Virus record (IMG/VR): IMGVR_UViG_2654587996_000001
Location: 1-36,538 of that record
Strand: one strand, 5' to 3'
DNA length: 36,538 nucleotides
Source: a virus
Lineage: Duplodnaviria > Heunggongvirae > Uroviricota > Caudoviricetes
The notes below the pieces were generated by a model. It was not told the DNA's origin, made no database searches, and saw nothing but the letters and a program-made list of their open reading frames with translations. The position numbers and the translations under genes are program-made. Below are positions 2,224 through 28,537 of this stretch, piece by piece (the stretch's first letter is position 1; each line of letters opens with the position of its first letter).

Positions 2224-4302
2224 TTATCCTGCTGACGGGGTATTCACTTCCACCACAATGCTGTCAATCAGCACCGGATATGTCGCAGCGCTGGTGATAT
2301 CAGTCACCCGTAATTTGTCTGCCGTAAACGTGCCAACCGGAGACTGAGACAGCATGAATGGTGTCCCGTCCTTACCATCAATGACCGGCGTCACCTCAAT
2401 ACTGTTGTTACCGGCAAAACGGAAGCCCAGCGTATGCCATTCGTTATTAAATGCACCGAATGACCCCAGTTTCGTGTTTTGCGCCGTATTGCCCTTGTGG
2501 TACATCACGTTAAGGTCTGTGGCATCGCTCTGAACGTAAAACGATGCCAGCAGGTTATGACCGGCATTACCTTCCAGAGTAACCCCTTGCGGCAGGGCAG
2601 AAACCGGCCAGTACAGCGCCATCGCGTACTGATTAGCCGTAAGCGTACCATCAACCTTAAACCGGCAACTGACAAGGCCACCTTTACCCAGCAGGTCCGC
2701 ACCATTACCGGCATCATGCTCAAGGTACCAGGAGGATTTGCCTGTTTCCTTGGTCAGTTTCATGGCCTTACCACTACCTGCTCCGGCATCATCCACGATT
2801 TCAGCCTTGCCACCTCCCGCGCTCCAGCCCTGTGGTGACAGCTGACCTTCTGATTCAGATGTCCGGTAAGCAAACAGCGTGCTCATCGTCGTGGTGTCAG
2901 CCGGTGGAGTGGACGGTGTATCCGGCGATGGTGTTGATGGGGAGTCAGGTGATGGCTTCTCATCCGGTGGTGTCACGGTCTGCCCGCCCATCAGTTCAGC
3001 CGTGCGCCCTGCATGGAGCAGAATAGCGGAGGCCAGACGGTCTGAAATAATGCCCCTGCGTGCCCATGAGCTGAAATGGCTGTCACGCTGTGTCGAGACA
3101 AAACTGCCCTGAGTACGGGATGCTGCACCATAATACCCGACAGCCACAATATCCGGGTCTTCCGCCGGAGCATTTGTTGGCGTGTTTGCGCCGTTTTCAT
3201 CTGTCAGGAACGGTACAAAGAAAATATTCTGTGCTTCCTTGCCTTTGTAGCCACCGTATACTGTCTCATATTTATCGGTGCCAGCGTTTTTCCAGTAATA
3301 CGTGGTATCACCGCAAATCCACGGCACCGTGGTGGCATTTCCGCTCACACACTGTGCAGCAAGTGAGGACAGGTCAGTCCTGAACTGCTGAACCATGGCC
3401 GTGAATAAACCGTTATGCTGCTGACTGCCTGAAGCAAGGTCTGCCTCGCCCTGCATCCATACCACCGCCAGCAGCCTGTTTTTCGGGTTCTTCGCCAGCG
3501 CCGCTTTTGTCCGGCTGACCATGTCCTGATACAGGGGTTTACCGGCACCCCAGCGTGCAGCGTCAGCGGATGCGCCACTGGCCTCACTGAATGTACCGTC
3601 GGCACCGGTGGTGAATGCAGAACCACCACGACAGCAGGGCACCAGAAGTATCCCTGCATTCTGCGGGATATACGACAGCAGCTTTTTGGCAATATGCAGC
3701 CCCTGACTGACACAGCCATACTGCCCCTTATTCAGGTCCGCTTTCGGATGATTAACACCGCTCATATCCTGTACATCATGCAGACAATGGTCAGCCGGAA
3801 TCACATCATTGTATGCACAGGCGTCTCCACCCGGCGTCACTGTACTGCGGCGTGCCAGCTGTTTAATGCGCGGGTCCGGGCGGTCATAAGAGTCCGGTAA
3901 CGGAAGCCCCTCACCGTAGGCCATGCCGTTGGACTGTCCGGCAAGCACAACCACGTAGTAATACTCCGGCTCTCTGTTGCCGCCACTCACACTGCCGGAA
4001 GACCCGGCGTTATCCGGTGCATTCCAGTCCGATGGGGTGAGCGTTCCGGCCACATCCGACGTAATGGGAATGACGCCGGTCACGCCAGAGCTGGTAATTT
4101 CTGCACTGGGGGTACCGGACACAGGCATTACCCATAATGGCTCTTTCGTGCTGAAGCGGATCACACAATCTGCAAAGGTGATCCCGCCTTTATTACCCGA
4201 AGGCCGGAAAGGGCTTTCAATAAATGCCACAGTGCCACCGGCAACCTTGACTGAAAACTCTCCGGGCATGGCGGAGAGCATTTTCCACTGGGAGTCTGAC
4301 AT
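2224..4302 (-). CDS. SGNH/SASA-family esterase domain protein with Pro/Ser/Thr linker and C-terminal beta-rich domain; candidate virion-associated receptor-modifying enzyme
   Basis: Motif VVVLAGQSNGMAYG (GQSN nucleophile block of sialate O-acetylesterase-like SGNH hydrolases); linker PPDEKPSPDSPSTPSPDTPSTPPADTTT; no N-terminal signal peptide; located just past the tail fiber genes. Confidence 0.7.
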   Translation of the reverse strand: MSDSQWKMLSAMPGEFSVKVAGGTVAFIESPFRPSGNKGGITFADCVIRFSTKEPLWVMPVSGTPSAEITSSGVTGVIPITSDVAGTLTPSDWNAPDNAGSSGSVSGGNREPEYYYVVVLAGQSNGMAYGEGLPLPDSYDRPDPRIKQLARRSTVTPGGDACAYNDVIPADHCLHDVQDMSGVNHPKADLNKGQYGCVSQGLHIAKKLLSYIPQNAGILLVPCCRGGSAFTTGADGTFSEASGASADAARWGAGKPLYQDMVSRTKAALAKNPKNRLLAVVWMQGEADLASGSQQHNGLFTAMVQQFRTDLSSLAAQCVSGNATTVPWICGDTTYYWKNAGTDKYETVYGGYKGKEAQNIFFVPFLTDENGANTPTNAPAEDPDIVAVGYYGAASRTQGSFVSTQRDSHFSSWARRGIISDRLASAILLHAGRTAELMGGQTVTPPDEKPSPDSPSTPSPDTPSTPPADTTTMSTLFAYRTSESEGQLSPQGWSAGGGKAEIVDDAGAGSGKAMKLTKETGKSSWYLEHDAGNGADLLGKGGLVSCRFKVDGTLTANQYAMALYWPVSALPQGVTLEGNAGHNLLASFYVQSDATDLNVMYHKGNTAQNTKLGSFGAFNNEWHTLGFRFAGNNSIEVTPVIDGKDGTPFMLSQSPVGTFTADKLRVTDITSAATYPVLIDSIVVEVNTPSAG

Positions 4303-4555
4303 CGTCTTTTCTGCCTGTTTCTGAATTAAACAGAGTCAGAATAACAACCGCTGATAAATATGTGTTTTGCGGAAATTCAAAAAAAGCGTCACGGTACTTT
4401 TTATGACGGAGCCGGTGAGGCAGGAACATAACGACAAAGGATGGACAGGCCAATATGATAACCGCATATTACCGGCTTATAATTTAATTAACGATTCATG
4501 ACGCGGCGGTCAGCACCTGAAAATATGCGTTATTTCAGACAACCCTTGCCTGTAT

Positions 4556-17430: not shown

Positions 17431-18378
17431 TTACAGATAATCCGCGACAACCAGTTCCAGCTTGCCTTTCATCTCGTTGGAGACGGTGGTGTTACCGTCC
17501 GCGAACAGCTCGCGCTCCAGCAGCTGCACCGCCTGTTTTTCCAGCGAGGTGGGGACAACAATATGGGTGGGTCTGATGCCGAGTTTGCGGCCACCGTCAG
17601 CCTTAAAGTCACGCATGGCTGACCAGCCGTGCCACAGCGCATCCAGCGTCAGCGGTGACTGCATCATGTAGGCCATCTGCCAGAAGCCGTAGCCCACATT
17701 GCGACGGGCGGAAGCACCGAACACAAACTCGTTATCAGTAAACGCACGGCCTTCATCGACTTTTGTCTGGGCAACCAGTTCGGCCTTGCGGCGATCCTGA
17801 TAAATCAGCGGTTTTACCGCGCGGGAGCAGTCAAGCAGATACCAGGCCGGGCCGCTGTAATCCGCCTGTGCACCGACAGAGCCGGTTTTTGCCACAAACA
17901 TGTTGCTGACCAGCTCCACATCACCGGTACCATCCACATTTGGGTAGACGGGGTGTTCGGTATCAAAGAAGTTCTGGCCGTCATAGCAGGCTGCATTGAT
18001 CCCGTCACGCAGTGCAGCAAAGACCAGTTCATCCGGTTGTGCCGCCGCAGCGCGTCCCATCTCCTGGAACAACGGGGAGTAGATGCCGAGATTGTCGTCT
18101 TCAAAGTCATCGCGGCTGATGGCAACGGTGCCTTCAAAGGTTTTGTTCACGATGGCGTAGCCATAGGCTTTCATCTTCTCGATGACGCGGGAGCCGATCC
18201 ACTCACGGAACTGCGGGAACTGCCCCAGCCAGCCGTAGGTGTTGGATTTCGACGTGGACGGCACGGTCATCGCAATTTTCTGGTACTGCGACGGGGCCAT
18301 GGACATCCCGGCCTGAAAATCAGAACGGTAGCCCGTCATCAGGGCGGTGATCATCGCCGGTGTAATCGGGGTAGGCAT
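17431..18378 (-). CDS. Major head (capsid) subunit, Mu T-like
   Basis: 315 aa, downstream of the protease/scaffold gene; a GC-rich hairpin at 17404-17422 follows its stop. Confidence 0.75.
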   Translation of the reverse strand: MPTPITPAMITALMTGYRSDFQAGMSMAPSQYQKIAMTVPSTSKSNTYGWLGQFPQFREWIGSRVIEKMKAYGYAIVNKTFEGTVAISRDDFEDDNLGIYSPLFQEMGRAAAAQPDELVFAALRDGINAACYDGQNFFDTEHPVYPNVDGTGDVELVSNMFVAKTGSVGAQADYSGPAWYLLDCSRAVKPLIYQDRRKAELVAQTKVDEGRAFTDNEFVFGASARRNVGYGFWQMAYMMQSPLTLDALWHGWSAMRDFKADGGRKLGIRPTHIVVPTSLEKQAVQLLERELFADGNTTVSNEMKGKLELVVADYL

Positions 18379-19511
18379 TATTGCATTTCCTCTTTCATTT
18401 TCAGGAACTCGGCTTCGGTTTTACCCAGCAGATGGGCGGCGGCGATATCTTCAGCCGACAGCACAGCGGTGGCGGTCTTTTTATCCGGCACGGTCACGGT
18501 GTCAGTCTGAAGGCCGGTCAGGGCCGCAACCGGCTGACGGGCGTCAAGCTGAGCTGAGAGAGCCGCCACGCCAATCTGCTGGCCGAGTCCTTCCATATAT
18601 CCACGTTCGCTTTTGAAGATGCGCCCTTCGGATTCGGCCTTGTCCAGCAGCTGCTCCAGCGTGGTGCTGCCATGCTGTGCCGACAGCGCGACATATTCGG
18701 TACGCAGGGCGTTATACGTCTCAACGGGCACATATTTCGTCAGATCGATAGTGCCGCCAGCCGGTGTGCCTTTTGCGGTTTCCAGCTCTGCCGACAGGCT
18801 GGCAACCTGCGTTTTCAGGGTGTCGTGCGCATCCGCACGGTTTTTGATCCCGGTAAGGGCAGACAGCGCCGCCGTGCCCAGTTCCGGTGTAAATTCGTCA
18901 CCGTCAGCCACGGTCAGACCGAGCGCCGTCAGCAACTGGCGTAATTGCTCATTCATGGGGGATTGCTCCTGAGAAGGGGAAACGACATAGAGATCGTCAG
19001 CACTGAGTGCCGCGACAGGGTTCATACCCGTAATACCCGGATCATTCGTCAGGGAAGCCATGCGCAAAAGGTAGGGTTCCCCGGTGTCAGCGAAATAATG
19101 CATATATGCAGACAGATAGGCATATTCACGGTCATCAATATGTTTTTGTGCCTGTGGCGTCCATTCAGGTTTAATGAAAATCCCCTGACCCTCACGCCAT
19201 TCGATGTTTTCCGGCTTAACCCATCCTGCGGCAATAGCCTTGAATCCGTTTTTCTTCGCATTCACGGAGTGGTGGTCATAATCAATCAGTAACGGCTGAT
19301 GCAGGGCGAAAAGCCCGGCTTTCATCCGGTTACAGGCGGATTCGTTAATCAGCCAGCCTTCAGCCGGTTTTTCCGGGCGACCGTCACGGGCCTTTACCCT
19401 GCCTGCTGGCAGTAACTGACACCATCCGTCGCCGGATGCAGTCAGCGAAGCTGAAAGCACGGCTAAACCGGAGGGGCGATTTGCGTCTTTTGGGGGATTT
19501 TCTGTCTTCAT
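18378..19511 (-). CDS. Head protease / scaffold protein, Mu I-like
   Basis: 377 aa, syntenic position upstream of the major head gene. Confidence 0.65.
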   Translation of the reverse strand: MKTENPPKDANRPSGLAVLSASLTASGDGWCQLLPAGRVKARDGRPEKPAEGWLINESACNRMKAGLFALHQPLLIDYDHHSVNAKKNGFKAIAAGWVKPENIEWREGQGIFIKPEWTPQAQKHIDDREYAYLSAYMHYFADTGEPYLLRMASLTNDPGITGMNPVAALSADDLYVVSPSQEQSPMNEQLRQLLTALGLTVADGDEFTPELGTAALSALTGIKNRADAHDTLKTQVASLSAELETAKGTPAGGTIDLTKYVPVETYNALRTEYVALSAQHGSTTLEQLLDKAESEGRIFKSERGYMEGLGQQIGVAALSAQLDARQPVAALTGLQTDTVTVPDKKTATAVLSAEDIAAAHLLGKTEAEFLKMKEEMQ

Positions 19512-19573
19512 ACCGGCAGCATAAGCCGGGTATTTTTGGGGCTGGTTTTGCGGGACTTCAGAAAGTGCTGACA

Positions 19574-19582
19574 GGGGGGGGG
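19574..19582. repeat. Homopolymeric G9 tract (C9 on the coding strand) in the G-I intergenic region
   Basis: Read directly; about 65 nt upstream of the gene I start. Confidence 0.9.
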
Positions 19583-19688
19583 TGAGAAAGGCGCTTCACG
19601 CAGATTTTAAAGCCCGTTAAATACAGGTTAGAAAATCACGACACGCGCCTGAAGGGGGTAAGGTAATACGTTTGCATACCTTAAACCA

Positions 19689-20162
19689 TTACGGCGTTTC
19701 TGTGGCCTTTTTAAAGCGTTTTCTGATTTCGTCCATGATCTCCTGTTCTGCCACCTGATCAAAGCCCATATACGGACGTGCGCCAATGGCCGCCGGTCCC
19801 GGTGGCATACCGGGCAGGCCACCCCACTGATGAATGGCCGCATAAGGCTCATTTGACCCAATCAGCGCCCAGGTGTCGCCATAATCCGTGGTCAGGCGTC
19901 GGGCCAGATCGCCGTTCAGCGTCAGGATTTTGCCGGGCGTGTATCCCTTACGGGTACGCCACTTGCGGTAAGGATCTGACCAGTCATGCCAGCGTTCGCC
20001 GTCCGGCTCTTTTTCCTGTTCAAACGCCATTTCTGACGATGACAACAGGCTGGACGCCACACTGCGGGCCAGGTCTTTTCCGCTGCCCACAAACTGAAGC
20101 CGGGCAAAGACCCGCTGGAGACGCGTAACGTCCACCACGACAGCTGCATCAATGGATGACAT
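19689..20162 (-). CDS. Virion morphogenesis protein, Mu G-like
   Basis: 157 aa, position between F-like and I-like genes. Confidence 0.6.
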   Translation of the reverse strand: MSSIDAAVVVDVTRLQRVFARLQFVGSGKDLARSVASSLLSSSEMAFEQEKEPDGERWHDWSDPYRKWRTRKGYTPGKILTLNGDLARRLTTDYGDTWALIGSNEPYAAIHQWGGLPGMPPGPAAIGARPYMGFDQVAEQEIMDEIRKRFKKATETP

Positions 20163-27463: not shown

Positions 27464-27534
27464 TGTTACGCTGTCTCATGGTGTTCTCTGAGTCAGCGTA
27501 ACCGTGGAAAAAAGGGGGCAGGATTTGCGGAATA

Positions 27535-27957
27535 TCAGAAAAGCCGGGGCTGCGTGCGTTCCTGATGCAGGCGACGCTGGTTGCGGATAACGGAGTAAAT
27601 CTGCGTCTCTGACATCTGGTAGTGGCGGCGCAGGGTTTCAATTTTTTCGCCCTGGCTCCAGCGGGAAAAAATTTCATTATTGCGCAGTTCGGTGAAAAGG
27701 GATTCACCGACCGGGAGATAATAACCACGCCCGCCCATGTACCCGGCCTGTGCAGCCGCAACTTTACGGGCAAGCATTCCCGCCTGAGCAGGTTCAATCC
27801 CCTGACGGTGCAGTTCAGCACTGATCACATCAACCAGGTCCCGCAGCGTGCCGGGCCAGTTTTTTTTCAGCTCATCATCAGGAATGTCATCCAGACGGTC
27901 AATCAGCGCGTGCAGCTGTTCGCTGTCACCAAACATGCTCATCTGTGTTTCAGCCAT
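27535..27957 (-). CDS. Mor/C-family transcription activator
   Basis: 140 aa, positioned immediately upstream of the lysis gene as Mu C is; conserved C-terminal region IYSVIRNQRR. Confidence 0.65.
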   Translation of the reverse strand: MAETQMSMFGDSEQLHALIDRLDDIPDDELKKNWPGTLRDLVDVISAELHRQGIEPAQAGMLARKVAAAQAGYMGGRGYYLPVGESLFTELRNNEIFSRWSQGEKIETLRRHYQMSETQIYSVIRNQRRLHQERTQPRLF

Positions 27958-27999
27958 ACCCGCCTCCGGTCATCATTACACAAGGCAAGTTTAAAATAA

Positions 28000-28023
28000 A
28001 AATCCCGCGCTGTGGCGGGATTT
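28000..28023 (-). terminator. Rho-independent terminator at the end of the early operon
   Basis: Perfect 9-bp stem AAATCCCGC / GCGGGATTT with 6-nt loop, followed on the minus-strand RNA by UUAUUUUAAA; starts 4 nt after the gemA-like stop. Confidence 0.65.
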
Positions 28024-28027
28024 GGGG

Positions 28028-28537
28028 TTAACGGGGGAATGATTTTTCATACAGCCTGCAAACGCGCTCATAACTCATCACTGTATGTGCTGGCATCCCC
28101 AGTACAGACAGCATTTTGCGGCGGTGCCAGCGTTTGAGACGCTCCAGCACATCAGAGGCCATCGCGGGGTGTTGCTCCAGCCACTGCCAGTTAGCCACAC
28201 CTTCGCCGCCGTTCTGCGCGGCCGTCTGCGATTTCACCCAGTGGTTAAGGGCTGTTTCCCCGCCATCAGAGATAAAGCCCTGCCGGTGCATCACCTTCCA
28301 GATGGCGCGAATTTTGGCGGTCACCGTACCCGGTTTTAAGGCCCGGTTAACCGGTTTCTGACGCACTTTAAAACCGCGTTTTTTGAAAACATCCAGCACG
28401 CGGGATAACTCATCCGGTGACATATCCCGGCAACTGGTTTTGCCGGTGGCTTCCAGTAGTACGGATGTGTAGATCTCATCATCCAGGGCAAGCTCGCGCT
28501 TTGCCACATGAATAGCGGATATCAGTTTCCCTCTCAT
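28028..28537 (-). CDS. GemA-like regulatory protein (Mu gp16 family)
   Basis: 169 aa; N-terminal region LISAIHVAKRELALDDEIYTSVLLEATGKTSCRDMSPDELSRVLDVFKKRGF resembles the GemA family pattern; last gene before the early terminator. Confidence 0.55.
   Translation of the reverse strand: MRGKLISAIHVAKRELALDDEIYTSVLLEATGKTSCRDMSPDELSRVLDVFKKRGFKVRQKPVNRALKPGTVTAKIRAIWKVMHRQGFISDGGETALNHWVKSQTAAQNGGEGVANWQWLEQHPAMASDVLERLKRWHRRKMLSVLGMPAHTVMSYERVCRLYEKSFPR

Follow-up and report, generated by a model that had tools for sequence, protein, structure and literature searches.

The question raised by this locus is whether a run of nine cytosines between genes G and I of a Mu-like phage is a regulatory element whose length adjusts expression of the head genes, or a sequence variant of little consequence. 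The run lies in the 177-nt intergenic gap of the window, by which we mean the whole 36,538-nt stretch of viral DNA that was analysed, and it is read as C9 on the gene strand and as G9 on the opposite strand. A preliminary description had placed a C9 run and a second CCCCC block in this gap, and both are found there. It had also proposed that the C-rich blocks are features of a late promoter and that changes in tract length tune the head genes, and neither proposal agrees with the evidence set out below. The reading that we favour, at a probability of roughly 60%, is that C9 is a near-neutral variant, derived by substitution, of a pyrimidine spacer and terminator tail between a gyrase-site hairpin and the late promoter PI.

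Sequence comparison and Pfam searches identify the phage as Mu-like and of the Sp18 type, Sp18 being the name of the Mu-like prophage in O157 Sakai (PMC2669165). Among the proteins of the window, Pfam recognises Mu-like I, G, lysozyme, and GemA, plus one activator of the Mor/C family. The G-I region is approximately 94% identical to regions described as "inserted Mu-like phage" in two Stx-phage records, and the gap is present in 225 to 227 of 5,426 complete E. coli genomes, many of which belong to O157:H7. In the Mu-like prophages of O157:H7, the gap is about 91 to 94% identical to that of the window, while Mu itself shows only about 73% identity over the G-I region, and this is confined to G. 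No Rfam family matched at E values up to 1. The features of the gap and of the related loci are collected in Table 1.

Table 1. Positions of the genes, promoters, and sequence features discussed in the text, in window coordinates; distances with a minus sign are relative to the predicted PI transcription start.
Feature	Positions	Strand	Sequence and remarks
Gene G	19689-20162	-	
First hairpin	19660-19682	-	AAGGTA-N11-TACCTT, variable loop; just after the G stop codon
Second C block	19654-19658	-	CCCCC (GGGGG on the + strand; relatives read CCCCC or CCCTC); within the gyrase-site portion of the gap
Long imperfect hairpin	19590-19649	-	GGCGC...GCGCC; -21.7 kcal/mol as RNA; followed by TTTCTCA and the tract
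Gyrase-site right-arm block (putative)	19614-19640	-	CGTGATTTTCTAACCTGTATTTAACGG; 23 of 27 positions identical to Mu CGGGATTTTTAAACCGGTATTTAACGG
Variable spacer	19565-19589	-	TTTCTCA, the tract, then TGTCAGCAC; the sole indel-bearing part of the gap in an alignment of 18 close haplotypes
C9 run	19574-19582	-	G9 on the + strand, there read as GGGGGGGGG; at about -71 to -63
Late promoter PI (predicted)	19512-19564	-	Shared box, 23 nt, and -10 hexamer
PI activator box (predicted)	19544-19561	-	CTGAAGTCCCGCAAAACC, 18 bp; about -50 to -33, centred at about -41.5
Inverted repeat around the -10 hexamer	19513-19529	-	CCGGC-N7-GCCGG
-10 hexamer of PI (predicted)	19518-19523	-	TATGCT; separated by 23 nt from the CCGCAAA core upstream and by 6 nt from the I ATG downstream
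I start codon	19509-19511	-	Lacks a Shine-Dalgarno sequence; the predicted PI transcription start falls on it
Gene I	18378-19511	-	
Mor/C-family activator gene	27535-27957	-	PF08765, E = 6.7e-31; 40% identical to Mu C
lys late promoter	27495-27538	-	Box CTGATATTCCGCAAATCC (27538-27521), 23 nt, -10 TACGCT (27500-27495)
Third promoter of the same type	4338-4380	-	TTGAATTTCCGCAAAACA, 22 nt, TATTCT; two-mismatch copy of the pattern

In the window, C9 is the only homopolymer of at least nine nucleotides, the runners-up being two T8 runs, and the longest of the other G or C runs is 6 nt. Runs of at least nine nucleotides arise in 931 of 2000 mononucleotide shuffles of the window (47%), and on composition alone the run is no more than chance would supply. 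It does exceed the minimum length of about 8 nt that serves as the slippage criterion for contingency loci, and it is intrinsically slippage-prone. Contingency loci carry homopolymers in promoters, for example between the -35 and -10 hexamers of genes in Neisseria or Haemophilus, and the window resembles them in having a 9-nt intergenic G/C homopolymer less than 75 nt upstream of a gene, in this case I. These properties are what speak for C9 as a part of the late promoter in which slipped-strand changes of length would tune or switch the head genes in the manner of a contingency locus. The location of the run relative to that promoter and its length in related phages both bear on the proposal.

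The preliminary description had equated the G-I gap with the position of a Mu late promoter, and this is supported both by the annotation of Mu and by a gap-free motif that the gap shares with the lys promoter. The regions upstream of lys (CTTTTCTGATATTCCGCAAATCCTGCCCCCTTTTTTCCACGGTTACGCTGACTCAGAGAA on the gene strand) and of I (CACTTTCTGAAGTCCCGCAAAACCAGCCCCAAAAATACCCGGCTTATGCTGCCGGTATG) align without gaps over approximately 55 nt, a stretch made up of the box, a 23-nt spacer, and TAYGCT. The strict pattern CTGANNTYCCGCAAANCC has exact matches at the lys and I promoters only, and its two-mismatch copy precedes a gene (2224-4302, same strand) whose 692-aa product has SASA acetylesterase and DUF6645 domains. 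In each of these promoters, 22 to 23 nt separate the CCGCAAA core from a TAnnnT hexamer downstream, and the O157:H7 prophage retains all three; the PI box is also conserved in all close relatives. A promoter for the P gene inside N, as in Mu, was considered and dropped, as no box of the lys/I type was found within N.

The assignment of the -10 hexamer is anchored outside the window. The start region of lys, TACGCT GACTCAGAGAA, matches that of Mu Plys, TAGACT GCCATCAGAGAA (the matching start region is also given as CATCAGAGAA), and the 67-mer promoter annotations of Mu, which come from an S1-mapping paper, line up by their -10 hexamers. The match therefore points to TACGCT, and by alignment to TATGCT at PI (19523-19518), as the -10 hexamers. 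A scan of the PI region detected no sigma-70 -35/-10 pair, and the -35 position is occupied by ACCAGC, which agrees with TTGACA at one of six positions. Mu-type late promoters have a -10 hexamer and no typical -35 (PMC2582627).

With TATGCT at -12 to -7, transcription from PI is predicted to start on the A of the I ATG (19511), and the geometry predicts a leaderless transcript. PGAP puts the start of I at the same position in relatives. At the place of the -10 hexamer, distant relatives carry TAAGCT, TACGAT, or CACACT, and in those designated L027 to L033 and L045, which have these hexamers, the distance of 6 to 7 nt to the start codon is kept. In Mu and in the relatives L047 and L048, the start codon is instead preceded by a leader of about 26 nt that includes a ribosome-binding site. 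The same leaderless geometry is found in the transcription of lambda cI from PRM. The -10 hexamer of PI also sits within an inverted repeat that recurs at the same place as GACCGCC-N7-GGCGGTC in L027 and as GACCG-N11-CGGTC in L029, so that complementarity is preserved while the sequence changes; on read-through RNA, the repeat would fold into a hairpin that stops immediately short of the AUG. The possibility of an antisense terminator at 19513-19529, on the + strand, was rejected because its T run is not conserved in relatives of the L027 type.

The candidate regulator of these promoters is the only Mor/C-family gene seen in the window. It lies 70 nt after gemA (region 27535-28537) and is directly followed by the lys promoter, the box of which overlaps the activator stop codon. 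Mu C recognises the consensus TTAT-N5-6-ATAA (PMC12867686, PMC2582627), at sites centred at -43.5. This consensus is missing from the G-I gap, and the activator of the window therefore probably reads a different sequence from that read by Mu C. PI occupies the late-operon position, has a -10 hexamer with no -35, and stands in a phage that encodes an activator of the appropriate family. It departs from the Mu C consensus, and we take it to be a variant of the Mu-type late promoter with a box of its own. The single Mor/C gene, where Mu has separate Mor and C genes with the middle operon between them, would imply a shorter regulatory cascade.

Numbered from the predicted start, the C9 run is upstream of everything that the three promoters have in common, with no overlap with box, spacer, or -10 hexamer, which argues against a promoter length switch. 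No tract comparable to C9 is present at -71 to -63 of the lys promoter or the third promoter. Constructs of Mu Plys that reach only to -52 or -60 are functional, C-dependent reporters (PMC2582627). Contingency loci also differ from the window in this respect, since the run, on the predicted start, is neither between core promoter elements nor in a reading frame. The small + strand frame of 12 codons that GGGGAAAAATG opens in relatives with T5C4 was rejected as an explanation, because its start codon is missing in relatives of the GTA type. The two C-rich blocks thus lose their place as late promoter features, with C9 upstream of the activator box and the CCCCC block in the gyrase-site part of the gap. 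A CCCCC followed by a T run had also been noted upstream of lys, and it is indeed read there, as GCCCCCTTTTTT at 27519-27508. Its counterpart in the alignment is not C9 but GCCCCAAAAA (19542-19533), within the PI spacer, and the O157:H7 relative does not keep this lys sequence.

An alternative register, in which C9 was aligned to the ATAACCCC box of Mu with CCGCAAAAC as the -10 hexamer, was rejected on three counts. The spacing in this alignment is 22 to 23 nt and not 20, a T(n)C(m) tract and a ATAACCCC box occur as distinct elements in the distant relatives L047 and L048, and the lys promoter fixes TACGCT as the -10 hexamer through the mapped Plys of Mu.

Upstream of the tract, the gap is laid out much as in Mu, where the annotated features are the gyrase cut site (17879/17880), a terminator called by TransTermHP (17908-17953), and PI (17977-18043). 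In both phages, the gap lies near the genome centre between G and I and contains a hairpin followed by a pyrimidine-rich stretch. The 27-nt block that resembles Mu begins and ends at the same offset after the G stop codon in the two phages (48 to 75 nt), and none of 500 shuffles reached its score. The T tracts of this block are phased near one helical turn, about 10 to 13 bp apart. In Mu, the counterpart lies 30 to 55 bp to the right of the gyrase cut site, in the right arm, which is essential, rich in bend-inducing repeats, and gives extended footprints (PMC10052514). The gyrase site of the Mu-like prophage of Sakai is the one foreign site that was able to replace the Mu site (PMC10052514). 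The central position, the right-arm homology, and the phased A/T tracts together suggest that the gap of the window contains a strong gyrase site. Transferred by offset alone, the Mu cut would fall between 19669 and 19668, inside the first hairpin. The loop of this hairpin is the other variable spot of the gap, reading GCAAACGT, ACAAACAC, GCAAATGC, and others among relatives, some of them near-palindromic.

The long imperfect hairpin, which includes the putative right arm, is the analogue of the terminator called in Mu, and the lys transcript of Mu ends between G and I. The stem of -21.7 kcal/mol has a GGCGC/GCGCC base, is interrupted, and is followed by a tail of UUUCUCA and C9, where relatives have U5. 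A simple terminator scan did not call it, and the tail of the window is the poorer one, with scores of 2.8 for the window, 3.35 for relatives with T5C4, and 3.96 for Mu; these serve as relative values only, with the d-score left aside. In relatives of the L027/L045 type and the L033 type, the T(n)C(m) tract directly follows a small hairpin, and for this reason its T run reads as a terminator tail. The long hairpin might thus act as a terminator, in which case the T's lost in the window should weaken the tail.

The replacement of T's by C's could also be seen as a change in the type of termination. Rho prefers C-rich RNA, and the 78 nt from the hairpin to the I ATG, which are 41% C and 15% G, are mostly unpaired in the predicted fold. 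If this stretch, including C9, served as a Rho loading site on read-through lys transcripts, the T-to-C changes would exchange intrinsic for Rho-dependent termination, and the lack of a Shine-Dalgarno sequence at I would make for inefficient translation of read-through RNA. Much of the C-richness stems from the promoter box itself, however, and most relatives have only C2 to C4 at the position of the tract. We regard this reading as speculative and quite improbable.

The history of the run is recorded in its relatives. The gap was read in 23 IMG/VR contigs, 10 complete E. coli genomes, and 17 metagenome contigs, approximately 50 gaps in all. At the position of C9, the large majority carry T5C4, and the other forms are T2C7, T1C8, T1C7, T5C3, T4C3, T4C4, T6C2, and T5C2TT; C9 itself occurs in the window only. 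None of the 5,426 complete E. coli genomes contains the exact 81-mer around C9. The best match in E. coli differs by one mismatch, CTCATCCCCCCCCTG, and is thus T1C8, and six records match with two mismatches, of which the two that were read are T2C7. Over 197 aligned nucleotides, no difference outside the tract separates the window from the T1C8 haplotype or from one T2C7 haplotype. In each of these nearest haplotypes the tract totals 9 nt, and only the identity of its T and C residues differs. The differences are T-to-C changes at the 5' edge with length held constant, from which it follows that the run grew by substitution and not by slippage.

The same series bears on the proposed length switch. 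Counting the tract across related phages had been suggested as a check on tuning, and the outcome is a constant length within haplotype groups, which speaks against tuning, with differences of 1 to 2 nt in spacing between lineages. Every group that was read repeatedly shows a single length (T2C7, n = 6; CTCA-T5C4, n = 15; GTA-T5C4, n = 13), and T2C7, T1C8 (n = 1), and the window all have 9 nt. Among near-identical genomes, no length polymorphism was seen, whereas contingency loci differ from the window precisely in varying by length and not by substitution at constant length. Two points can still be made for a switch: the tract changes against a near-identical background, as a mutational hotspot would, and the distance from hairpin to box varies by 1 to 2 nt among lineages, from 20 to 22 nt. 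These spacings coexist in intact-looking prophages, which suggests tolerance and not a switch. Nothing among the approximately 50 related sequences points to a length-switch role for C9, and we consider such a role very unlikely.

Across the 18 close haplotypes, all indels of the gap fall within about 20 nt around the tract, and almost no variation is seen in the hairpin region, the box, or the -10 hexamer. The tract segment is evidently the least constrained part of the gap, in which changes of 1 to 2 nt in either direction appear to be tolerated. At the same time, two substitutions within a 9-nt tract in 197 nt that are otherwise identical would indicate a hotspot or selection over plain drift. 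That C9 is an error of sequencing or assembly at a homopolymer is scarcely credible. Its occurrence in the window alone among about 50 sequences is what such an error would predict, but homopolymer errors alter length, the length here is that of the nearest relatives with only T/C identity differing, and an independent genome carries the T1C8 intermediate. This genome (L044; E. coli TOE17, NZ_CP069093.1 1456698-1477871) holds a heavily deleted prophage, with a fusion of the early region to a truncated minor head gene and with incomplete tail genes, so that the T1C8 variant persists in a defective prophage.

The pyrimidine tract is also found beyond the close relatives. Distant Mu-like prophages have T(n)C(m) upstream of PI, usually followed by TG, in the forms T4C4, T2C6, T4C6, T4C3, and T5CTC8. 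The tract recurs at about -60 to -70 with promoters of either type, the 14-mer TTTTCCCCTGAAAG is common to L047 and the close group, and Mu too has a pyrimidine-rich stretch there. The tract could therefore have a function of its own, and one form of this idea is that T(n)C(m)TG is a DNA element acting by composition and not by length, either as an upstream element of PI or as an outer extension of the gyrase right arm. The extended footprints of the Mu right arm (PMC10052514) are in keeping with the latter. Against the element in either form, the C run is reduced to 2 and the TG is lost in L063 and L067, and the lys and third promoters have no counterpart. Both the alpha C-terminal domain and the sigma-70 C-terminal domain are dispensable for Mu C (PMC12867686), which weakens the reading of the T run as an UP element contacted by the former and counts against an upstream promoter element. 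The tract would also be about 87 to 95 bp from the putative cut site, beyond the 130-bp gyrase motif of -63 to +66 (PMC6379681). A functional element of this kind seems unlikely.

The substitution-derived spacer variant that we favour brings these observations together as follows. The gap would be laid out as in Mu, with a gyrase site, a pyrimidine-rich spacer, and an activator-dependent PI. The right arm of the gyrase site would double as the long hairpin that ends the late transcript running from lys to G, and the T run of the tract would be the distal part of the U-rich tail behind it. In the lineage of the window, T's would have been replaced stepwise by C's, from T5C4 through T2C7 and T1C8 to C9, at a length of 9 nt throughout. 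C9 would at most weaken the terminator tail, with a small effect on read-through from G into I. Downstream of it, PI would consist of a box at about -50 to -33 and no -35 hexamer, and would start at or beside the A of the I ATG.

A bolder version, which we hold to be a long shot, makes the tract a conserved, tunable insulator between the lys and I operons of Mu-like phages. Here the T run would set intrinsic termination, and the C run, expanded independently in several lineages (C6, C7, C8, and C9), would set Rho loading on read-through RNA or form a G-rich structure on the template strand beside the gyrase site. Were this true, the tract, together with the leaderless start of I, would set the ratio of head protease to scaffold, and C9 would be a slippage-prone, high-C extreme allele with a measurable phenotype.

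Gene I has features of its own that touch on this ratio. An internal ATG (18954-18956 on the - strand) is homologous to the start of the Mu scaffold protein Z and is preceded by AGGAG at a spacing of 9 nt, whereas the full-length start of I has no ribosome-binding site. This difference could set a low ratio of protease to scaffold. For most E. coli relatives, homology to the window is lost about 22 nt into I (19489-19511), where the N-terminus exists as two alleles, MKTENPPKDANRPS... and MKTKNTPKLAYA..., which places a mosaic junction shortly after the start of the gene. Com-like zinc-finger and Mom-like ORFs (689-994 and 1-1086, - strand) occupy the left edge of the window. The mom upstream region was said to have no C run, and the com/mom upstream region indeed shows none; this region is rich in A+T and lacks a lys/I-type box, so control of mom may differ here.

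Set beside Mu, the window shares a PI that depends on an activator (by prediction in the window) and has a -10 but no -35 hexamer, as well as a Mor/C-family activator gene. It differs in having neither TTAT-N5-6-ATAA nor the ATAACCCC box, in place of which stands CTGAnnTyCCGCAAAnCC, and in a -10 hexamer only 6 nt from the ATG, with one activator gene and a poorer terminator tail. Sp18 of O157:H7 Sakai and the related prophages (225 of 5,426 genomes) agree with the window in their hairpins, in the promoter boxes of lys, I, and the DUF6645 gene, and in the geometry at the start of I. The O157:H7 prophages differ in carrying GTA and T5C4 where the window has CTCA and C9, and in a different allele of the 5' end of I.

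For the biology of these phages, the homopolymer itself would matter little, as a lineage-specific variant of a spacer whose surroundings, a gyrase site, a terminator, and a late promoter, are already known from Mu. What the comparison adds is the placing of likely late promoters for Sp18-like prophages, which are present in about 4% of complete E. coli genomes, including those of O157:H7. It suggests that these prophages use a recognition box unlike that of Mu C, a single Mor/C activator, and a leaderless I transcript, and each of these is an easily testable prediction about prophage regulation.
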